From contig JAVKOQ020000004.1 of NCBI GenBank assembly GCA_031835245.2, positions 496,001-538,335 on the forward strand: a stretch of DNA of 42,335 nucleotides. The letters are read 5' to 3'. Shown piece after piece: positions 8,352 through 34,783 of the stretch (position 1 is the first letter of the stretch; each line of letters opens with the position of its first letter). A program made the translations under genes and the position numbers. Below the pieces are notes generated by a model that saw nothing but the letters and a program-made list of their open reading frames with translations, searched no databases and was not told the origin of the DNA. Source of the DNA: Balamuthia mandrillaris. Its lineage: Eukaryota.

Positions 8352-10466
8352 TTAATTGGCTTTCTTGGAGTACTTGGCTCGCTTGCTTTCATGAGGATGA
8401 AGCGGGATGATGTGTTTAGCGAGCTGTTCATCGTAGTTGCGGTAATCAATATCGTGTTTCCACCGCAACAACCGCACGTTGTTACCTGGTCGAGGTAATA
8501 CAATCGAGGTTGGCTGTTCTTCAATCTGTACAAAGCTGCAGGGCTCGCCTCCAGCTTTAAGTTTTGGGGGAAGGGCCTCTTCTCGGAACATGTCTGCTGC
8601 TTGGTGGTCGGGGAACTCAAACCACAACTCCATGATCACCAACTCGCTTCCTTGCCCACTTGGTCGGGATAGAATGATAAAGGCTTGGTTCACCATTTGG
8701 GAGGGTAGCGCAGAGACGCATGTTTCAACGTCCTCTTCTCCAACAAAGTCCATTCTCAACAGGTTATATTGACGATAGACCTGATGTTGACAATCGTAAC
8801 CATCCACCTTGGAACGAGATTCCTTTTGCATAACAAAACCTTGGTGTGAAGCTTTGTCTTGGCTTTCGTGGATTGCTACCCTCTCCATCCACTTTTGAAG
8901 CAACGGTCCTCCCCAGCGAGGTAAAGGCAATTCCTCCAACTGTGTAAAAGCCAAACGGACGAGGGTGGATTTACCTTCATGGGTGTCCTGCATAACTTGG
9001 GCATAAACCTGTCGCGGTCCCATCCACTCTGAGGAGAGGTTCTCTGGGTTGTTATGTTGTTGGTCCATAAGGTGGAAGCGATTGGCACCAATAATAAGGA
9101 ACATGCCGATGATTAGCTGCGTTTGCAAGTTCGGGTCGGGGTTCAAAGGGCTAGGAGTGTCCATTCCGAAAGAGGATCCTCTCATGCGAACTCCAGACAT
9201 ATACATCCAGAAAGTAAGACGGTCATCCTCAGTCAAATGCCCAAACTTGGACTCTGCATAACAGCTGCGCAGAGAATAGCCAAATGTTTGGAGAGGGTGA
9301 GAAAGGGGTCTAGGGCGAGAAATAGAAGTGAGTACGTGCTTATTGATGAAACCCATTTCAGCACTCCAAGCCCACGCCATCATAAACACATCTTCCTGTT
9401 GAAATAACTTTCCATCCGTCGGAAAAACGAATCGAATGATTGCCAGAGGTTCAACGAGAATGTGCCTATTCAGCTCTGCCAGCACAAACGCAGCATTTAG
9501 TGGGTTTTCTGTAGTATATGTGTCCAAAAGCTTGTACGGATGTTTAGCGATAGCCGTCTCGAATAGAGCACAATGAAACTCCACTCCCATTGCAGTTTGT
9601 AGCTGCGTCGGCGCATACTTCCTGGTTAGACTACCCAAGTTGGTGTTTTGCTGATAAGGGATGGTGACGATATCTCTTGGCAGGTGGATGTAGCGTGGCA
9701 CCATGCGAGGGTGAGCTGGAGTTTTAGTGGCTACCAGAAGCTCGTAGGTGTGATGCATACGGAGTTGCTCTACGTCATGGTGTACCTCCCAAATGAACGG
9801 ATTGATGGCTCCGGCATCAGGGCTCAGCAGGGCTCGCCGCAGAAGGTAATGGATGGCAAGATCTTCCAAAAAGTTATCGGTGTTCATGCAAATGACGTAA
9901 GGGGTGGTCACTTGTTCCAGAGCCAAGTTGATTGCCGCGAAGGGCGGAAGTAAACTCGTGTCTTCCACAACTGTTAGGACGTGTTTTCCAAGATTCCTCT
10001 CCTGCTCTCGCAGCCACGTCACCAAGTCAGGAGGTTCTAGGCCATTGAGGACGAACACGCTGCGTATGCCTGTCGAATCTTTGTTCCACCAGTCTTCGAA
10101 GACTTGCTTTGCGTGTGAGAACTTCTCCCGTGACGTCCAGACCAGTGTCACTAGTTGAGATACAACCGGATCGAGCAACTCTTTAACTAAAGTAGGTTCA
10201 TCTGTATCAAGGAGTGCAGTCAACAATTGTGGCGATAACAAAGGGGTACGGAGATGTGGTGCGTCGCCTGTGTGCCTTTCCTTTACTCCTTCACAAGAAC
10301 AGCAGGCAGATATCTCAGCACCGCCTGTTGCTGGAACTGACGGGGCAACTCTCTGGATTTGCAAGTTTGCCTGGTCATGGTGAAGGTAGATAAAAGTCGC
10401 CGGGCCTAACAGTGCGACTACTATCAGGAGCACTGCTGCCCTGCACACAAGTTTGTAGAACTTCAT
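8352..10466 (-). CDS. Type II membrane GT-A fold (GT2-like) glycosyltransferase, 704 aa, single long ORF
   Basis: N-terminal signal anchor (AAVLLIVVALLGPATFIYL). GT2-like core VFVLNG...AAINLALEQVTTPYVICMNTDNFL...AGAINP. The C-terminal half is not recognised. A short intron near 9290-9340 cannot be excluded. Confidence 0.6.
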   Translation of the reverse strand: MKFYKLVCRAAVLLIVVALLGPATFIYLHHDQANLQIQRVAPSVPATGGAEISACCSCEGVKERHTGDAPHLRTPLLSPQLLTALLDTDEPTLVKELLDPVVSQLVTLVWTSREKFSHAKQVFEDWWNKDSTGIRSVFVLNGLEPPDLVTWLREQERNLGKHVLTVVEDTSLLPPFAAINLALEQVTTPYVICMNTDNFLEDLAIHYLLRRALLSPDAGAINPFIWEVHHDVEQLRMHHTYELLVATKTPAHPRMVPRYIHLPRDIVTIPYQQNTNLGSLTRKYAPTQLQTAMGVEFHCALFETAIAKHPYKLLDTYTTENPLNAAFVLAELNRHILVEPLAIIRFVFPTDGKLFQQEDVFMMAWAWSAEMGFINKHVLTSISRPRPLSHPLQTFGYSLRSCYAESKFGHLTEDDRLTFWMYMSGVRMRGSSFGMDTPSPLNPDPNLQTQLIIGMFLIIGANRFHLMDQQHNNPENLSSEWMGPRQVYAQVMQDTHEGKSTLVRLAFTQLEELPLPRWGGPLLQKWMERVAIHESQDKASHQGFVMQKESRSKVDGYDCQHQVYRQYNLLRMDFVGEEDVETCVSALPSQMVNQAFIILSRPSGQGSELVIMELWFEFPDHQAADMFREEALPPKLKAGGEPCSFVQIEEQPTSIVLPRPGNNVRLLRWKHDIDYRNYDEQLAKHIIPLHPHESKRAKYSKKAN

Positions 10467-10819
10467 TCGAAGGGCGCCTGTCGTAAATATTTTTGTATTT
10501 TATCAATAATTATTTCCACTGATGCCACTCAGTTGCCCTCTCTCTCTCGCTCTCTCTCGTTTTGTTTACTCTCGATTTCTCTCTCACTGACTCTCTCTCT
10601 CTCTCTCTCTCTCTCCCTCGCTCAGTTTTGTACTCGTTGTTTTGCATGCTCTTCCGATATCACAGTCTCTTACGTCATGCCCTACTACGTTATGCCGATA
10701 CGTCATGGCCTCAGACTTCCGTTGTTGGAAAAACTGCCACAACTGCACTCTCTGTTCCTTATTTGACAAAAAGTTGTTCCAAAGAGATGAGGCATTGTTG
10801 GTATTCACGCTGAAAAGAG

Positions 10820-12276: not shown

Positions 12277-13016
12277 CTAACTGGATATAATCATAATATC
12301 ATCATCATCATCATCATCATCATTCTCCTTTGTTTCTTCCTCTTCATCCAAGATGGATATGACTGTAGTGGTAGTAGTAGAAGTAGGAGATGATGGGAGG
12401 GAAGCATGGTTGTCATCCGGTGTGTCAAAGTCCTCATCATGGGCCACCAAGTATTTGTCTTTTAAAGCATCAAGATTGTTGAAGAATTCTGTGAGGAGAT
12501 TGCGCCATTTGTCATAGCAATCATTGTTGGTTCGGCGTTGGGTAGGCAAGTGTTTGGCAATCTCCAACCAAGACCATCCATCACGCAAGTGCCAAGTGAC
12601 AAGTCTACGGATTTCTGGTGTCTGCCAAGCAATCCGTTGTCGATGACCATTCTTCTGATATTTGAGTCGATTGGATAACATTTGTTGTCGCTGAAGTGCT
12701 CTGTGAACTCGTTGTTGTGGTGGTGTTTTTTCTTTTGAGTTATGATTCCTTTCATCATCATCATCATCGTTTTTTTTCAGAACATCATTAGGAGAAGTAG
12801 GTAAGAATGGCTGCTCTTGATGACGAGAGGTGAGGAATGCTTTGTGAATGGGTGATCCGTTGACCAACTTGGGAAGTACAGGAGCTACAAACTCATCCAC
12901 CAGCTCATTCAAGCCACTGAAAAAACCTTGTAGAATGCCAGAGATATGTTGACAGCAAAGCTGATGATGAATATTGGGCCAACGAAGAGGAGATTTGTTT
13001 TTGGCCTCATAAGTTG
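12277..13016 (-). pseudogene. 5'-truncated intronless ORF with a Myb/SANT (telobox-like) domain
   Basis: RQRIAWQTPEIRRLVTWHLRDGWSWLEIAKHLPTQRRTNNDCYDKWRNLL has the three-Trp Myb pattern. The frame stays open upstream (TYEAKNKSPLRWPNIHHQLCCQHISGILQGFFSG) to the LTR junction with no ATG. Confidence 0.6.
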
Positions 13017-13205
13017 TGTAATTGAGTGACCCCTCATCTCATTACCCCACATAAGGAAGGAACGAACACGAACACGATAACACGAAACCACCATAAGGAC
13101 CACGATACCAATCCTTTTTATACCAACACTATCTTTATGTTTATCTCTACAGACACAGACTACAATACATACTCTTTTCCCATATACCTATTTACTCTGC
13201 TAACA
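13017..13205 (+). repeat. 5' LTR (189 bp)
   Basis: Identical to 17254-17443 except ACAC vs AAAA (2 substitutions) and one T missing at the 5' terminus. Ends in CTAACA. Confidence 0.95.
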
Positions 13206-13218
13206 GGTTATGGGCCCA
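13206..13218 (+). promoter_or_regulatory. Primer-binding site GGTTATGGGCCCA (half-tRNAiMet primer type)
   Basis: Immediately after the 5' LTR. Same motif class as Drosophila copia and yeast Ty5, which prime from the initiator-tRNA anticodon stem-loop region. Confidence 0.85.
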
Positions 13219-13269
13219 CAGTCAAACTAAAACTGCTACACTCACAATCTCCTTCAAACACACTGCACG

Positions 13270-13990
13270 ATGGACAAGTTGAAAATCAAACCGTTTGACG
13301 GACATGGATTCCAGGATTGGAAATGCCAGATGAGAACGCTCTTGAAGAGCAAGGGCGTATGGGGCTATGTTGACGGAACGATAACCATAGGAGCCAGCAG
13401 CAGCCAAAAGCAGGAAGACATCGAGTTTAATCCAGCGAATGACGCCATAGCCAGCGGTTTGATCTGTAGCTGTCTCACCCTACCACTCTTGAGACAGGTG
13501 ATGAACCTTGAAAGTGTGAAAGAACAGTGGGATAGGCTTTGCGAGAAATATGACAAGGCTGACACCACTAGAAGGACCGAGCTCCGCACCAAGCTTGCTA
13601 CAAAAATGAGGGACAATCAGGACCTCAACAAACACCTCGATAAGTTCAACAGCCTGATCGGCGAGGCAGACCTAATCTTCAGCAACGCTTCGATACCTGA
13701 GGACGAAAAGATCCACTACCTCCTAAACAGCTTACCAGAAAGCCTGGAGCACATCTCTTCTTCACTAACACTATCCTTGAAGGACAGCAGCACCTACAAG
13801 GAGATATTGGACAAACTTAGACTCGAAGCTGCCCGAAAGAAAAGCAAGTTTGATGGCAAAGGCGAATCAATCATGTATGGACGCCATAGACAACGTGGAA
13901 ACAGAAAGGACCATGGTTGTTGAGAGAAGAAAGATAAAGATATTGAGTGCTACAAGTGCCATGGATTTGGACACATAGCGAAGAAGCAGT
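13270..13990 (+). pseudogene. gag: copia gag, with premature stop and broken zinc knuckle
   Basis: FDGHGFQDWKCQMRTLLKSKGVWGYVDG...LLNSLPES. Stop TGA 13921-13923, then CYKCHGFGHIAKK lacking the last Cys, with a frameshift near 13985. Confidence 0.88.
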
Positions 13991-14023
13991 CAGAACGGTA
14001 GTAAGAAAAAGAAAGGAGAGCGA

Positions 14024-17000
14024 ATGATGAACGTGTCGCTCAAAGGAGGATCACCAACCGGAGACATAATCTTGGACTCCGGAGCATCCTGCCACATGAC
14101 GGGTAACAAAGGCCTGCTAACGGACTGTAAGCCAACAAAACCAACCAAGGTCTACTTTGCAAACGGCGAAAAGATAACCGCCACGGAAGCTGGTAACCTA
14201 CGTTATATAACAGAGACAAAGTACGGACACGAAACGTGTGTTTTCCAAGATGTACTCTACGTCGACGGATTCGACAAAACGCTAATATCCACGACGACCC
14301 TGGACCGAAGAGGAATAACCATTTCCTCATCCGGCGGAGTCACCAGACTCAAACAGGACGGAATGGTCATCGGTATCGGAATATTGGAGGAAGACGGACT
14401 ATACCACCTCCAAGGCAAACCAGAGCCGCGAAAAGAGCACGCTAATACCGCAGTGGACGAATGGCACAAACGTTTGGGCCACATCAGCATTGAAAAGCTG
14501 AAGGAACTACCGAAGATCACGAACGGAATTGATATACCCAGCGGCGCAACCCTCGCACCGTGTACTGCCTGCCTCAAGGGCAAGCAATCCCGAAACCCCG
14601 TTAGTACAGAACCAGCCACTCGAGCCACAGAGAAGCTCGAATTAGTGCACACGGACATATGCGGACCAATGCAGACCTCCATCGGAGGGTCCAGATACTT
14701 CATTACCTTCACGGACGACCTGACCAGACGAACCTGGGTCTACGGACTGGCCACGAAGGACGGTGCACTGGAACGATTCCAAGAATTCGAAGCTTTGGCC
14801 ACCAACCAAAGCGGCAAAAGGATCAAGGCACTACGAAGCGACAACGGCGGCGAATACATTAGCAAAAACTTCAGAAACCACCTACACAAGAACGGCATAC
14901 AAACCCAAACGTCTGCACCCCATACACCGGAGCAGAACGGAGTCGCTGAAAGAAAGAACAGGACGCTTATGGAGAAAGCACGATGTATGCTTCAACACGC
15001 TGACCTGGACGAGAAATATTGGGGGCCAGCCATCAACATGGCGAACTACATCACGAACCGCACCGGCACCAGCGCAGTCAACGGAATGACGCCAGAAGAA
15101 GCTTGGACTGGAAAGAAACCGTCTCTCCGACACATCCAAATCTTTGGAAGCAGACCGTGGACGCTCATACCCAGTAACGACCGAAAGAAACTAGATGCCA
15201 AAGCGAAGGAGCTCATCTACCTTGGACCCACATACCCTCTACAACCCAAAGACAAAGAGAATTACTCTTTCACGCAACGTAAAGTTCATCCAACCTGAAC
15301 GGAGCACAATGGACGACGAGAAAGAAAAACTCACCTCCATCAAAAACAAGCCTGAGCAACCGAAGAGGATGCAAACTTCAGACCTAAGCGACAAAGAGGA
15401 CTCTGACTCAAGCGAAGATGAAGAGGAGGAAGGCGAAGACAGCGAAACTAAGGCTGATGAGAACGCAGGCGAAACCAAAGGCAAGCAACCTATCAACAGC
15501 AGCGACGGAAACGGCAAAGCCATCATCGATAAGAAGACAACCAACCCTGCATTTTCATTCCTCAAAAAGCCACGAGCAGACGGGAAACGAGCTATCACGA
15601 TAACCTCGCGACTCATCGAAGAGGATCCCAAGAAGAAGAGTGCCAACCTGGTCACCTACGCGCTGATCGCAGCAATCATCGGGGAACCAAAAACCTACGA
15701 AGAAGCAATCAACGGACCAGATCGAGAGAAGTGGCTTAAGGCGATGTCAGAAGAGTTCGAAGCTCTGATGAAGAACAAAACTTGGCGACTCGTTAAACGA
15801 CCCGGAAGAGAGAGAACCATCGTCAAGAACAAATGGACATTCAGAATTAAGCGGAATGCCCACGGCGAGATCGAACGATACAAGGCCCGACTCGTTGCCA
15901 AAGGCTTCACTCAAGTGAAAGGAGTCGACTACTTCGAAGTCTATGCACCAGTCGTTCGAATGACATCGATTAGAATCATCATAGCCTTTGCGACATTCTA
16001 CGACCTAGAACTCCACCAGTTGGATATTGTCACAGCATTCCTCAACGCTACCATGAAAGAAGTCATCTACATGGAGCAACCTGTAGGATTCGTCGACCCC
16101 GAGCATCCCGACGACGTCTGCCTCTTAGAAAAGGGACTATACGGCACGAAGCAAGGAGCAAGAGAGTGGAACGGAGAATTTGATAGCACTCTCGTTGACC
16201 TTGGCTTCGAAAAAGCATCAGCCGACTGCTGCATCTACTTCAAATGGGAGAACAACAACATCATCATCATCGGACTGTACGTTGACGACCTACTGATCGC
16301 GGGAACAACCGAGAACATCAACAAGTTCAAGAACGACTTGAAGTCACACTACGACGTGAAGGACTTGGGACCAGCCCAATTCATCCTCGGAATCCAGATC
16401 AAACGCGACCGACAGAACCGACGCACAACACTACTCCAACCTACCTACATCAGCAATATGCTCGAGAAGTACAACATGCACAAAAGCAGGCCAATCGACA
16501 CCCCAACGCAAGTGGGAGTAAAGCTAACGAAGTATAGCAATTCGAGGAAGCTCGACCCCAAGGTTCCTTACCGAAACGCAATCGGAAGCTTAATGTACGC
16601 AGCCACCGGAACCAGACCCGACATAGCATTCGCCGTTAACGAGCTCGCTAGATTCACAGCTGACCCCAAAGTGGAACACTGGAAAGCCCTAAAAAGAATC
16701 TTTCGCTACCTCAACGGAACAAGAAACCACGGTATCACCTTCGACACCAACGACGCTAACGCTTCGAAACTTATTGGATACGCCGACGCCGACTACGCCA
16801 ACAACATCGACTCAAGAAGATCGACCACGGGATATGTCTTCAAATTCTGCGGAGGACCAATATCATGGCAATCGAGAAAACAGAAGACCGTCGCGCTATC
16901 TACAACCGAAGCCGAATATATGAGTATCACCGAAGCAACCAAAGAAGCTATCTGGTTAAGAAGACTGCTAGACGATATCGGAGAAACCCAAGAGGGACCT

Positions 17001-17267
17001 ACCATCATCTACGAGGACAACATTGGATGTATCGAACTGTCCAAGAACCCAGGAAACCACTCCAGAACAAAGCACATCGACATTCGACACCACAAGATCA
17101 GGGAAGAAACCAAGAAGGGTACCATCAAGCTGGAGTACATGGCCAGCGACGAGATGCCCGCCGATGTTCTGACCAAACCCCTACCGCGAGACAAACACGT
17201 CAAACTAATCACGGACATCGGAATGAGACAAGAGAATCGGGATCAAGTGGGAGTGTTAATTGAGTGA
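14024..17267 (+). pseudogene. pol: copia pol (protease, integrase, RT, RNase H) with a frameshift near 15230
   Basis: ILDSGASCHM (PR); WHKRLGH..CTAC; VHTDICGP/RSDNGGEY/PEQNGVAER (IN); YKARLVAKGF, QLDIVTAFL, LYVDDLL (RT); YADAD/STTEAEY/YEDN/ADVLTK (RNase H). The frame switches at LIYLGPT|TLYNPK. The stop lies inside the 3' LTR. Confidence 0.93.
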
Positions 17268-17443
17268 CCCCTCATCTCATTACCCCACATAAGGAAGGAA
17301 CGAACACGAACACGATAACACGAAACCACCATAAGGACCACGATACCAATCCTTTTTATACCAACACTATCTTTATGTTTATCTCTACAGAAAAAGACTA
17401 CAATACATACTCTTTTCCCATATACCTATTTACTCTGCTAACA
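17254..17443 (+). repeat. 3' LTR (190 bp)
   Basis: TGTTA...TAACA terminal inverted repeat, preceded by purine-rich AAGTGGGAG. Confidence 0.95.
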
Positions 17444-17459
17444 TGACCCATATTGGAGG

Positions 17460-17768
17460 GGCGACAACGGGGGCAACGGAAGACCTTCTTCCCTCCCAGT
17501 TTCTGGTGGATACGTCCGCATCTTCCACAGGTCTTGGAGGTGTAGTGCTCGTCCACGATCACGATGCCCCCGTTGTCGCCTGGAAGCAGACAGAGACATC
17601 CATGCTGCCAGGAACGTCCTTTTGTGTTTCCTGGCACATCAGGACATCATTGTGGCGAAAGGTAGGGAGCTGTACGGACAGAGTCCGGCAGCATTGGGTC
17701 CTACACCCGTGAATGCATCCACCCATTGTGGTGCATTTGTGCAAGATTTGCAAAATGTGCAAGTTTAA
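17460..17768. pseudogene. Fanzor/TnpB (IS607-like, Fanzor2-type) nuclease C-terminal remnant with internal inversion
   Basis: Minus strand 17460-17564 reads VIVDEHYTSKTCGRCGRIHQKLGGKKVFRCPRCR. Plus strand 17565-17768 reads CPRCRLEADRDIHAARNVLLCFLAH...QV*. Joined, these give the E.YTS-CxxC...CxxC-DRDxxAARN signature. Confidence 0.88.
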
Positions 17769-17794
17769 TGTAGGCGTGGAGGGAATCTTTCATA
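17669..17794 (+). ncRNA. Putative omegaRNA scaffold (~17669-17774) plus candidate guide (~17775-17794)
   Basis: Stem-loops at 17669-17692, 17696-17708, 17711-17738 and 17740-17752. Loop CCTAC (17700-17704) is complementary to GTAGG (17770-17774). Overlaps the 3' end of the nuclease ORF, as expected for TnpB/Fanzor omegaRNAs. Confidence 0.5.
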
Positions 17795-17882
17795 TCGAAG
17801 CTGACCCATATTGGAGGGGTTCTATCTAGACACGAAATTTATTAGAACTTTGTGGTCAGGTTTTTTTTTTGACCTCCCTCAC

Positions 17883-20127
17883 TCACTGGCTGCTGCCGCC
17901 GGTATGGGAGTCCAACCACTGCGCAACTGCATCACGATCGCGAGCAAGCCAGGCGGCGTTGCTCCTGATAGCCTCCAAGCTCTGCTTCACAGTCCTAGCG
18001 GCAGGCTCGTAAGGGTGCTCGGCAAAGAAATGCTCCACCTCTTCCGCTTTCTCCTCCGAGGTGAAGCCCTTGGTGGAGTAGCTGATCACGCGGGTGAGCA
18101 AGGTACCGCCATCGCCCAACAGCTCCATGTACTTGCTCCAGTTGTCCTGTACGAAGCGCCAGGTGATCTCGCGACCCTCCACGCTGTCGGCGGTGGAGAC
18201 GATGACGTACATAACGTCCTGCGCTCTGACCTCGTTAGTGTCCAGCGACATTCGCAACGTCCGCTGTAGTCGATCTATGTGTTACAGCGAAGATAAAGTT
18301 CAAAAGTTTTACATAAAATCGACATAGAAGGAGGAAGGCAGAAACATACCTTCATCGTGAGTGTATCCAAGAGCTCTCAACGCGCGGATCTTTTCTTCAT
18401 GGAGAGTGGCCTCTTTGTAGATTTTATAGACGCTGTCCCATTCAACAGCTCCTCCGTTGGACACCACCTGTTTGTTTCAAAAACGTTGTCAGCGTTTTCA
18501 TTATTTGCAAAGGCTCAACTGGGCAAAGGATTGCATACCGCTTTGTAGACGACACCTCGTAAGTCAGCAGGAATGGCTTTGCTATCGTTTAGGAACTTTT
18601 GGAAGCGGGTTTTGGCCTCGTTGATGGTTGCCTCATCGCCAGCATCCACCAACCTGCTCAACAGAACAGTTCTCAGGAGGGTTTGCAGATCTTCCTCTCC
18701 TTGCTTCTTATCCCTGTTGGGACAGCAAAAAAAAAAAAAAGATAAGTCAATAAAGGGGAGAGAGAGACAATGAGAAGGAAATAAGCGTACCAGCCAAGGT
18801 TGGAAGCCGCGGGGCCAATCAAGGAGCGAATGAAGGCGTTGAGCTGAGGAGCGGCAGGTTCAGCCTCCCAGACTGATGCCATTTGAGCCAAGTTAATTGA
18901 CAAATCCGACCAGATCGTGTAGTCCGTCTCATTGCCATACGCACTTGCCAATGTCAACACCTTTGAAAACAAGTCACATGAGTCATGTTGAAATTAAAAT
19001 TACATAGAAGGGAAAGGAAGAGGGACGAAGAGACCTGCGAGGTGGGGAGGTGACCAGCTTTAGCCAATGCAAAGGCGTCATTCTGGATACCTAGTCTGTC
19101 GATAGTGCCAAGACTGTGGCCATCAAGGGCCGCCAACAGTTTCTGCACCATCGCTGGCGAATACTTGACGCGGAAAAAGCCGGTGGAGTTCGCGTTGGCC
19201 TTAACCCAAGCAGCACCCTTTGCAGAGGTGACTTCGATCTCTTGTTTCGTGTCCTTGATGTCCACGCGCTCCGCCTCTTGAGATGTTGAACTATAGTGTT
19301 TTTATCAAAGAGAAGAATAGGAGAGTAATCATTTAGTTTTGTCTGCTAAGGAACAAAGAGACAGGAGAAAAAAAGAAAGGTGAACCTGATAAAACCGACA
19401 TTCATCCACCAAACGGTAGAGTTGCCCTCAACGGTCTCCCCAGAGGAGAGGAAGCGCTGCTGCTCAGTTGCATAGACGCCCGCTTTTTCAGTCTCCTCTA
19501 TAGAGAGCACAGGGTAACCGACAGCCTTGGTCCAGTTATCCATAAACTCTTTGACGGGCAAGCCAGAGCTTTCCGCAAGAGCCGCCCAAAGGTCCTTTTA
19601 AGTGGTAGGCAATTGATAACAGGTTCAGAATCGAAGGTCATAAAGAGATTTGAAGTGCAACGTACCTCAGTAACGGCATTGGCGTACTTGTGGCGCCCAA
19701 GATAGATTTGAAGACCCTTTTGGAAGCGTTCTTCTCCCAAGTAATTGGCCACCATGCGGATGACAGAAGCTCCTTTGCTGTAGCTGATGGCATCAAAGAT
19801 TTCGTTGACCTGCGCAGAGCTGGATACCTCCACTTCAATGGGATGAGAGTTCTTGAGGCCTACACATGGTTGAGTTGATATCAGTAAAAGAAACTAAAGA
19901 AAAAGGTAGAGACACACAAACCATCAAGTTCCAAGGCACGGGCAATGTAGTCAGTGACAAATTGAGTCCATATGTTCCACTCAGGGAACAATTGAGCAAC
20001 AGCTTGGTTGCCCATGAATGTAGCAAAGCCTTCATTCAGCCAAAGTTCCTTCCACCATTCCATTGTTACAAGGTTGCCGAACCACTGATGAGCCACTATA
20101 AGAGGAAAAAAGTGTCACTTTCAATTA

Positions 20128-31753: not shown

Positions 31754-33728
31754 TCATTGATCCAAGTTTGGCGTTGGTTTAGGTTTGTCGGCCCAATGCT
31801 TGTCCAAGAAGGTCTGATAGGAAATGCCAGAGGCCAAGGCATTACGCAACGCCTCAAACGTAGATCTCTTGGCCATGCCCTGAAGAAACATAGTCACCAC
31901 CCAAGGCCTAATGTCTTGCACAGTTACTTCCTTTGCTTCTTCGTCCAGTTGTTGCCATATCTTGAACAAAATGGGTTTGCGCACAGAAGCAGAGGAGGAA
32001 GAAGGTTGGGAAGACAAGGATCTGGCAAACTTGGCTCGGTCGTTGTTGTAGAGTTGTTTCAGTTCGGTGACTTGTTGAAGCATCTCTGCGCAGTTCTTGT
32101 CGATCTCTTCCACCATTCGGCTTGAGAACTCGTCCATCGCGCGTCTGTCCTCTTCCACCAACCAAGCTCTCAGGTCATCGTACTTCTCCTCTGCAAGGCA
32201 TGCAAGCATTAAAAAGGACAAAGAAAGAAGATACGTAAGAAGATGAAGAAGCACAAGCACAAGAAGAAGAGAAAAGAGGAAAGGAGAATAAGCACCAAGA
32301 ATACATTTCCAACAGGATCGTTCTGAACCAGCATTAGAACGAGCCGAAGAGACAAGCTCCAAAGCCTTGTTGATATTGCAGTACCACTTCGTTTTGATTT
32401 TGTACATCAAGCCAGAGTCGAACCGAATGACAAAGCCCTCAAAGCCCTGGTTCTTTTCCCGAATGGCGTGCTGTAGCTCTGCAAGGCTTAGTCCTCCTTC
32501 TCCTTCCTGTCTCTCAGAAGCGGAAGATGGAAGATATACACCTAACTCCTCCAACGTGTAGGCCTTTACTACTGGTATTCCTGTTTTTTGTTTAAGAGAA
32601 AGAGAGGAGAGAGGAGAGAAAGAGAGGAGAGAGGAGAGAGAGAGGAGAGAGAGAGGAGAGCAGAGAGCAGAGAGCAGAGAGCAGAGAGCAGAGAGCAGAG
32701 AGCAGAGAGCAGAGAGCAGAGAGCAGAGAGCAGAGAGCAGAGAGCAGAGAGCAGAGAGCAGAGAGCAGAGAGCAGAGAGCAGAGAGCAGAGAGCAGAGAG
32801 CAGAGAGCAGAGAGCAGAGAGCAGAGAGAGAAGCAAAAGCAGAAGAAATAGAACGTGTTTCAAAAAAGTGAGATAGAGAACGAACAAAGATGAAAGCAAA
32901 GCCTACCATATTCCTCTGCAACTTTTTTCGTCTCAGCATAAGACAGATAGTCACCCGAGTGCATGTGCCGCAGACAAACAAGCGTCAAGGAATCCGTGGG
33001 ATAATCCAACACTACTCTCGTCTTATTGCTGCACCACTCATAGATGGGAGTGTAGCCACGCTCAATCCACTCCGCTGAAAACTCTTTGTACAACGACTTC
33101 TTCCTGTCTCCTTGATCTTCTGGCTCTGCATTGATGAAAGCCTCTGCCAAGAGAGAAGCGTCCGTGACGCCTTGCTTGGTGCAAAACCGGAGCTGCCCTT
33201 CCGTGTAGTAGGGAGAGACCATGGAGCCGTCAAGCTTCTCCAACACGACGAACGGCTGGCTCAGGTCTATCTTCTCTGCTTTGGCCTCCTCCACTTCATT
33301 CACTGTTCTTCATGTTGTTAGGAAAAGAGATAGAGAGAAGAGAAGAGAGAAGAGAAAAGAAAGAAGAGTGTAGAGAGAAGAGAGGATAAGAAGGAGAGAA
33401 AGAGAGAACCATTGAAGAACTTATGAAAGCGGCGAGAGATAACCTTTCCAGTTTGGGTGGAAAAGACGATGCCCCTACACTCCCTTCGCAGCTGCCACAG
33501 CAACCGAGTCCGCTCATCAGGGGCAGTCTCCGGGTCCGGAAAGATGTCCTTGGCCATCCCCAAAAAGTAGATGAAGATGCTGTGGTCGGGGAACGTCAGC
33601 TCCTTGAAGTCGACCCTGTCTTTGATGGCCTCCCTGACGTCCTCTATGCGGATGTCCTGCGGAAAGAGTGACGCGCCAGGCCTGTTGCGAGGGGTGCATG
33701 CATGGTCGCTGCTGCTCTCTCCTTCCAT
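31754..33728 (-). CDS. T4 RNA ligase 1 (Rnl1)-family ATP-dependent RNA ligase; spliced
   Basis: RRECRGIVF...VISRRFHKFFN, motif I EKLDGSMV, TPIYEWCS...RVVLDY, motif IV EGFVIRF, motif V YKIKTKWY. Confidence 0.9.
32656..32823 (+). repeat. Perfect heptamer tandem repeat (GAGAGCA) x ~24 in an RNA ligase intron
   Basis: C recurs every 7 nt from 32661 to 32822. Confidence 0.95.
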
Positions 33729-33818: not shown

Positions 33819-34099
33819 TGTCTATCAAGAACAAATTTTTGTGTGGGTAATGCCTCCGCTCCTGTCCTGGCCCGTATCTGTCGACATTAATAGATATGAC
33901 GTGGTTTTTCCCTTATCAAGGAGAGGATGAGCTGTCTTTTGGAAATGAAGAAAAAGAAAGGAGCGAAGACGCACGATGGGAGGGAGAGCCGCTACAGCCA
34001 ATTTCTTTTCTTTTCCCTCTCCGTTGTACTACATGCTACTACACAACCTTTAAAACCGCCACCACTATGACCACACTGTGAACGTAAAAAAAACTTATC

Positions 34100-34783
34100 A
34101 TGAAGAGGATACCGATGGTACAGGAAGGAGAAGCCTTGGTATCTGAAACCAACCCAACAATGAACAACAACCACCCCAAGCAAGCTTTTGTGGTGCGATC
34201 GCTTCCTTCTTCTTCTCCTTTAACAACAAGTGAAAACAAAAAGGGCAAGGAGCCTTGTTGTATGGAAGACTTGCCGCCGGACCTGCTGAGCAAGATCTTG
34301 GCAAGCCTGCCCAAGGAGAACGTAGCGGTTGCTGCAAGGACCTGTCGCTCGTGGTACGCTTGCAGCCCCGTGCACCTCAGGCAGAAGTTTTCTCTGAGGT
34401 GGGTATGCAGCTGCTTGGGGGCCTTGAAGTGGGCACGCCTTGAACAGGGTTGCCCTTGGCACGCCAAGGTTTGCCAGGCCGCCGCAGGGACGGGCTGTTT
34501 GGCGGCGTTGAAATGGGCGAGAGCCAACGGCTGCCCTTGGGATGAGTACACTTGTGCCTACGCTGCTGGCTACGGCCAGCTGAAAGTGCTGAAATGGGCG
34601 AGAGCCAACGGCTGCCCTTGGGACGAGCACACCTGTGCCTTTGCTGCCAAGAATGGCCATTTGGAGCTGCTCATGTGGGCGAGAGAGAACGGCTGCCCTT
34701 GGAACTGGTGGACTAGCTTCAATGCCAAGAAGCACGGTCATTTGGAAGTGTTGGGATGGGCAAACGCTAACGGATGTTGGTGA
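34100..34783 (+). CDS. F-box-like plus 'WARANGCPWD' divergent ankyrin-repeat protein, intronless
   Basis: MEDLPPDLLSKILASL...AARTCRSWY (F-box-like), then repeats of CxxAAxxGxLxxLKWARANGCPWD. Start codon uncertain. Confidence 0.8.
   Translation: MKRIPMVQEGEALVSETNPTMNNNHPKQAFVVRSLPSSSPLTTSENKKGKEPCCMEDLPPDLLSKILASLPKENVAVAARTCRSWYACSPVHLRQKFSLRWVCSCLGALKWARLEQGCPWHAKVCQAAAGTGCLAALKWARANGCPWDEYTCAYAAGYGQLKVLKWARANGCPWDEHTCAFAAKNGHLELLMWARENGCPWNWWTSFNAKKHGHLEVLGWANANGCW

Follow-up and report, generated by a model that had tools for sequence, protein, structure and literature searches.

An inverted Fanzor element end between two 18-bp direct repeats beside a copia LTR in Balamuthia mandrillaris: anatomy of a complex rearrangement

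A stretch of Balamuthia mandrillaris DNA of 42,335 nucleotides (the window) carries, at 17444–17819, a partly inverted end piece of a Fanzor element between two copies of an 18-bp direct repeat. The structure is real, and it is a complex rearrangement in a new member of a known element family. A retro-copy is possible, if unlikely. The insert is read here, tentatively and at somewhat less than an even chance, as a repair scar at a site that a Fanzor copy already occupied; either the faulty integration of the adjoining copia retrotransposon or the repair of a break would have re-copied the Fanzor sequence with two template switches. The weights given to this and all other readings are matters of judgement and were not computed.

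Anatomy of the insert and its neighbours

The 340-bp insert (17462–17801) is composed of 99 bp in inverted orientation, a 4-bp filler, 212 bp in forward orientation and a 25-bp tail. The features of the locus are collected in Table 1. Contigs of 7 of 24 public sequencing runs were compared with the window, with rows of small share left out. The site is uncovered in X14 (0 contigs), X15 (one contig, at the coding end) and X22 (two raw RNA reads, neither on the insert).

Table 1. Coordinates of the features at and around the insert (positions within the window).
Feature	Positions	Strand	Evidence or remark
Multi-copy Myb-like ORF, 3' part only, truncated where copia begins	12277..13016	-	PF00249, E 1e-4
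Ty1/copia LTR retrotransposon without target-site duplication	13017..17443	+	gag, integrase and RT domains; LTRs 99% identical
3' LTR, its final CA directly before the left 18-mer	17254..17443	+	sequence; similarity to other copies is lost before 17254 and behind 17443
Left copy of the 18-bp host repeat	17444..17461	+	final 2 bases (GG) fit the inverted element piece too
Fanzor coding piece in inverted orientation, with the catalytic E six residues ahead of a C4 zinc finger	17462..17560	-	PF07282; best PDB match mimivirus TnpB-like L79, 9b0l
4-base filler at the inversion point, makes a 6-bp tandem repeat	17561..17564	.	sequence; outside the uninverted contigs
Forward Fanzor 3' end: last RuvC motif (RD), predicted omegaRNA scaffold, right end	17565..17776	+	domain match, fold, contigs
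CCTAC, complementary to 17770-17774	17700..17704	+	in or beside a hairpin loop in folds; also present in a diverged subfamily end
Two 8-bp direct repeats near the right end	17738..17763	+	sequence
Tail behind the element end; first 15 bases the would-be guide	17777..17801	+	25 bp; unique to the locus in X1 and X2
Right-hand 18-mer, native to the host	17802..17819	+	diverged single copy (15/18 alike) in the X11 empty allele
Near-match to the would-be guide, 12/15, first 7 exact	17812..17826	+	best match in the whole window, both strands
Last exon of a host M1 aminopeptidase; insert at the end of its 3' UTR	17883..18281	-	ERAP1_C, E 4e-25; minus-strand AATAAA at 17838-17843

The initial annotation had described an exact 18-bp repeat around an insert that is both truncated and inverted at its 5' end, and each of these points is borne out. 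The 18-mer occurs at 17444 and 17802 on the plus strand and nowhere else on either strand of the window. About 3e-4 such repeats are expected by chance and, an ankyrin-repeat array aside, the window has no second complex repeat of this kind (exact, direct, 18 bp, copies within 500 bp). Since the last two bases of the left copy also match the inverted piece, the length of the duplication is 16–18 bp. The inversion splits a zinc finger: the minus strand of 17461–17562 encodes its start in a TnpB/Fanzor protein (PF07282, E 2e-8), and the plus strand of 17562–17711 continues it (E 3e-4). The uninverted form is present in X1 as one contig (joint 17476->17565 on opposite strands, 16 letters in common), and the inversion is thus derived. 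The inverted and forward pieces overlap by 14–16 bp with no gap between them, the bases at the end of the inverted piece recur in the filler, and other copies of the element continue beyond 17560 in contigs of the public runs. Among the contigs listed, none bridges either left-hand junction; both junctions are read from the window alone.

The right copy of the repeat is host DNA. The bin 17788–17818 has the depth of a single contig in every run that covers it, versus tens to hundreds for the element, so the 18-mer lies outside the element consensus, as had been supposed, and the candidate explanation that it is part of the Fanzor element was rejected. An empty allele with one copy of the 18-mer had also been anticipated, and X11 contains such an allele in diverged form, as an unbroken 1754-base contig in which the 18-mer is alike at 15 of 18 positions by eye. 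The ungapped alignment of this contig begins exactly at the 18-mer (16/19 alike); of the 11 letters that precede it, 3 agree with the end of the tail (by eye, with 30 letters of the diverged allele visible). The X11 letters upstream of the 18-mer repeat its first five bases, and an alternative alignment with a 10-base indel reaches 17/19 with one upstream letter left visible. The X11 allele also lacks a 4-base tandem duplication at 17821–17824 that lies inside the guide near-match and lifts it from 10 to 12/15 (by eye). At its loose end before 17825, the same allele can by eye be drawn as a small hairpin with a 6-bp stem and a 3-base loop; the loop starts at the base where the 18-bp duplication starts.

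The copia element that adjoins the left repeat is flanked by mismatched DNA. None of 15 tests, with LTR starts at 13015–13019, produced a 4–6 bp duplication. The far LTR start differs by one base, and the LTR end beside the scar is intact. On the far side, tblastn matches of the Myb-like ORF end at 13016–13017, and its N-terminal 90–165 residues match nowhere in the window. From the missing duplication and the cut ORF, it follows that the two flanks of the copia element were not originally neighbours and, in turn, that the original left context of the 18-mer is lost. A deletion, recombination between copia copies and a misjoin would all look alike here, and the left edge of the 18-bp repeat may have been set by the LTR rather than by a nick. 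All 19 matches of the Myb-like ORF come from B. mandrillaris, where at least 19 similar proteins are found, many encoded on short contigs and several forming fusions with other gene models; the family is probably an unnamed transposon. The copia ORFs (13231–17267) are split by frameshifts despite the 99% identity of the LTRs, and three bases at 17391–17394 are present in the window only, which suggests residual sequencing errors.

Elsewhere in the window, an exon on the minus strand (32860–33309) encodes a T4 Rnl1-like RNA ligase domain (PF09511, E 2e-20), and 34088–34783 on the plus strand belongs to an F-box and ankyrin-repeat gene, whose repeat wording we take to resemble that of pandoravirus-type proteins. 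An intron-free frame of 715 codons on the minus strand (8352–10499) has a weak glycosyltransferase-2 match (E 0.03) in a genome that is otherwise intron-rich. An exact look-up of a neighbouring ORF gave no match.

The Fanzor family, the tail and the guide match

The element is multi-copy, with a fixed right end at 17776 and a variable flank. In four of four runs, loose ends of contigs with different flanks lie behind 17776 (at least 9), 17777 (at least 16) and 17778 (at least 1), as counted among 24 of 75 rows. The extension past the element end, initially put at ~27 nt, is therefore corrected to the 25-bp tail, or 24 bp if the next T is counted with the element. The pieces at the locus contain a DEHYTSKTC...C motif followed by RD, a rearranged RuvC arrangement that defines Fanzor2-type enzymes in the available part of PMC13565253. 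The first motif is common to 134 of the 150 best relatives and the whole pattern to 109 of the 150. The best PDB match is mimivirus L79, both for the fragment (E 4e-4 over 34 residues) and for the relative P0006 (E 2.5e-26). From these matches, the element is likely a Fanzor2 of the IS607 type. It resembles known members of this group (mimivirus ApmFz L79, Naegleria NlovFz2) in the E six residues before the C4 zinc finger and the RD that follows, the sharp right end with varied flanks and the structured 3' RNA region; in contrast to them, only the last ~300 bases are present here, and these are partly inverted.

The fold of the forward piece has a z score of -3.0, with 1 of 200 shuffles equally stable. 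A predicted pseudoknot between 17700–17704 and 17770–17774, its pairing deduced from complementarity, would set the guide start near 17777. The two 8-bp repeats have a putative role as sites of the kind that an IS607-type transposase would bind.

Other copies in the run contigs are truncated at their 5' ends at 17617, 17685 and 17741 and have unrelated flanks. The copy cut at 17685, a loose end in X3, is an insert in a DTW-domain gene model (P0003) that ends in element-derived residues. A second model, P0154, is 93% identical to P0003 and is without these residues; the two appear to be the filled and the empty haplotype within one assembly. Further loose ends at 17528, 17667 and 17727 resemble diverged versions of the element and indicate that subfamilies exist. 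The rise in depth toward the 3' end is partly due to these subfamilies and to overlapping contigs. A full-length protein of the element was not found, the best relatives listed being 58–81% identical with one row at 44%. A second Fanzor copy in the window was found neither by blastn nor by tblastn with 150 relatives. Pattern scans of viral and metagenome contigs gave no match to the element end, viral contigs gave none to the relative P0006, and an Rfam search returned a single chance hit.

The tail is unique to this locus in the contigs of X1 and X2. Contigs of X1 (17749–17969) and X2 (17749–17870) cross 17801 unbroken, both starting at 17749, where the third base of the tail first makes a 31-mer unique, and they alone explain the depth of the bin 17788–17818 (3.51 in X1, 19.4 in X2). 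A second locus with the tail would break these contigs, and their continuity thus argues against one in these runs. The donor locus with a 17775–17801 extension that the initial annotation had proposed was not found, no branch being present across 17779–17801 in the contigs of either run. Absence is harder to show than presence from contigs, and a donor of the IS607 type could since have been lost by excision. X3 has contigs of the element end with different flanks, and none of those listed has the 17777–17801 tail. A further X3 contig, at depth 500, enters the tail by 17 bases without a difference and ends at 17785; it is probably host mRNA, since the host gene stands at this depth, above the repeats. 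A pattern scan did not find the tail in metagenome contigs.

The near-match to the would-be guide begins with the first base after the element end and was tested post hoc. Matches as good occur in 6 of 41901 window 15-mers, 166 of 200000 shuffles and 32 of 30010 local comparisons (~0.1%), and in 77 of ~5000 cases in a looser test of the whole tail. Similarity ends at tail base 15, and 2780 of 5000 random 10-mers match at least as well as the remainder does. A Fanzor guide is 14–15 bases long according to the accessible part of PMC13565253. The three bases before the near-match are TAT, which is not G-rich; characterised Fanzor2 motifs are GGG, CCG and TAG, with T/A-rich motifs in other tests (PMC10530073, and PMC10432273 as far as its text is available). 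The 18-bp repeat spans positions -10 to +8 of the near-match, and the cuts on record lie at +9 to +21. Between the would-be guide and the X11 allele, agreement is 9/15 by eye. Two other explanations of the tail were tried and rejected. As a patchwork of filler from nearby DNA, 18 of its 25 bases can be accounted for, a coverage also reached by 588 of 6054 window 25-mers with a 35-bp neighbourhood and by 1875 of 6047 with a 60-bp neighbourhood. As a full-length tandem copy of host DNA, it would show similarity beyond base 15, which it does not.

Origin of the insert

IS607 transposition makes no long flanking repeat according to PMC3627910, PMC13565253 and PMC10711439, insofar as these texts are available. 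Under the favoured repair-scar reading, a Fanzor element would have inserted in front of the 25-bp tail, making the tail its native right flank. The copia LTR would have been joined to the first base of the 18-mer, and the LTR end, carrying 18 host bases, would have primed on the sense strand of the element through a two-base match. After 99 bases were copied backwards, a slip would have left the 4-base filler, and a switch to the forward strand 16 bases earlier would have carried synthesis onward through the element end, the tail and the original 18-mer. A single event would in this way yield the repeat, the inversion, the loss of the element 5' part and a copia element without target duplication. 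The template may have been DNA of a sister or homologous allele or read-through RNA of the same locus, which the data do not separate; RNA from the same locus would be compatible with the model since both new strands are antisense to the element, as fits a single-stranded sense template.

The anatomy, the element end, the uninverted donor form, the host origin of the 18-mer and the mismatched copia flanks are direct observations; the order of events and the native status of the tail are inferred. The repair-scar model is favoured because one event explains the position of the LTR, the absent copia duplication, the lost element 5' part, the absent donor and the absent poly(A). It predicts an LTR that ends exactly at the left repeat, which for a retro-copy is a coincidence. 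The caveat of the initial annotation that the duplication might reflect template-switch repair beside the LTR has thus become the best fit. At the left-hand junction bins, the X1 depths are 3.95 and 53.4 versus 3.95 and 53.39 expected from the uninverted contig alone. X1 therefore looks as if it holds the element end, the tail and the host without the rearrangement, which at a depth of 3.5 weakly suggests the unrearranged parent. Contigs across the left-hand junctions are missing from X1, which proves little given the low depth and the tendency of assemblers to drop rare branches. Against the model, the ungapped X11 alignment fits a foreign tail, and only the alignment with the 10-base indel rescues a native one. 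That the similarity breaks off after base 15 is likewise more in keeping with a guide than with an old tandem copy. The model has to accept two template switches in ~100 bp and, in X11, a 10-base indel precisely at the 18-mer. As a precedent, one-ended retroviral integrations are described in the available text of PMC5041404 as leaving duplications, deletions and, less often, inversions. Such aberrant retroviral or LTR integrations resemble the present case in the lack of the short LTR duplication and in a deletion on one side with a duplication and inversion on the other. The difference is that the rearrangement in the HIV cases described there is usually found beside a viral end that is damaged, but here beside an LTR end that is intact.

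The initial annotation had proposed a retro-copy made by twin-primed target-primed reverse transcription. In such a model, a transcript of a Fanzor at a different locus that ran 25 bases beyond the element would have been reverse-transcribed, with twin priming, by a non-LTR retrotransposon into an 18-bp staggered break, with copia arriving later at the same base. The geometry stands, and the reading as a whole is unlikely. The order and orientation of the pieces agree with twin priming, including an inverted 5' piece that starts at the left repeat, and the left junction has a 2-bp microhomology (GG), a single event for which two bases match by chance in about 1 of 16 cases. The 16–18 bp duplication lies within the range of about 5–30 bp expected for LINE-made copies and is near the 14–16 bp peak of L1 duplications given in the accessible part of PMC2912911. 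The X11 empty allele, with one 18-mer and, ungapped, no tail, also agrees, as do the 5'-truncated copies with unrelated flanks. These likenesses to 5'-inverted L1 insertions and retrocopies, namely the direct repeat, the inverted 5' piece and the 5'-junction microhomology, are offset by differences. There is no poly(A), as the initial annotation had cautioned (the longest A-run is 2), the junction is unlike the TTTT/A cut motif of L1, no donor with the tail is found in the X1 or X2 contigs, and the LTR at the same base is unexplained. For twin priming, an internal deletion is described in the part of PMC2837659 that is available, and an overlap with filler is seen here. Inverted 5' ends occur in 1 of 5554 Alu insertions, whose RNAs are of similar length, and in 4 of 477 SVA insertions (PMC2912911), an argument that a longer mRNA template would escape. 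No LINE is shown for B. mandrillaris. The accessible part of the Balamuthia genome paper names only a Ty3/gypsy element (PMC4665321), by which the absence of LINEs is not shown, and a literature search on non-LTR elements of Balamuthia, judged by titles, found no Balamuthia genome paper.

Involvement of the Fanzor nuclease is a rather improbable reading that takes one of two forms: in one, the guide led the RNA-protein complex here and a break was filled by copying its RNA; in the other, repair of a homing cut ~18 bases into the target began to copy the element and was aborted. The guide match argues for this, being the best in the whole window, with an exact 7-base seed and a start directly behind the element end. 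The cut of the non-target strand by Fanzor2 after base 17–20 (PMC10530073, and PMC10432273 in the part available) is near the repeat length, and the empty X11 allele has GGG, the motif of the mimivirus enzyme (PMC10530073), just before the 18-mer. Truncated Fanzor1 copies of Chlamydomonas, with 7–19 bp duplications behind a fixed motif (PMC3627910), are also consistent with it. However, TAT precedes the near-match and Fanzor2 motifs are described as G-rich in the available text of PMC13565253, the placement of the repeat at -10 to +8 does not agree with known cut positions, and homing needs the 18-mer right after the element end, where 25 bases intervene. The two halves of the argument use different registers, and the match itself is tempered by its post hoc nature, the looser whole-tail result and the poor agreement of the X11 allele. 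A more specific proposal has the Fanzor2 guide RNA steering its own insertion: a 15-base guide would have paired with the near-target, and the RNA would have been copied from both DNA ends, leaving a nuclease-free guide module behind an LTR promoter, with the 5'-truncated copies arising by the same RNA-guided and RNA-templated spread. This is unlikely; if true, guide-steered insertion would be a spreading route that is not driven by the recombinase of the element. An artefact is a further explanation of low probability, with the inversion and left repeat being an assembly or library chimera of LTR-bearing and Fanzor-bearing alleles. The unbridged left-hand junctions among the contigs listed, the copia flanks that do not belong together, the difference between the window and every run at 17391–17394, the frameshifted copia ORFs and the presence of two haplotypes in X1 and X2 are consistent with a chimera. 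Against a chimera, X1 and X2 bear out the right side, and bridging contigs may exist beyond those listed. A return to the original strand by two switches, with a 14–16 bp overlap and a templated 4-base filler, is more than a simple chimera yields.

Relation to known systems and significance

The Balamuthia family has parallels among other Fanzor systems. The Chlamydomonas Fanzor1 elements CRe-1/2/3 likewise include many copies that have lost the 5' end and kept the 3' end intact, often accompanied by duplications (PMC3627910), and the 'ghost' stand-alone omegaRNA loci of several species are guide modules without a nuclease gene, like the insert (PMC10432273, as far as its text is available). 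CRe-1/2/3 are, however, Helitron-linked and the ghost loci have both element ends, and neither is described with an inversion or an extra tail in the available parts of these sources. A full-text search found no published work on Fanzor in Balamuthia. No published retro-copied guide RNA was found, as judged by titles and the beginnings of abstracts in a search that lay mostly outside subscription papers.

The single scar alone is of little importance. It led to a multi-copy Fanzor2-type family in Balamuthia that comprises subfamilies and copies truncated at the 5' end; in one haplotype, one such copy interrupts a DTW-domain gene model. The origin of 5'-truncated Fanzor copies with variable 7–19 bp duplications has stood unexplained since the Chlamydomonas report (PMC3627910), and the Balamuthia family permits a direct test of retroposition versus aborted homing.
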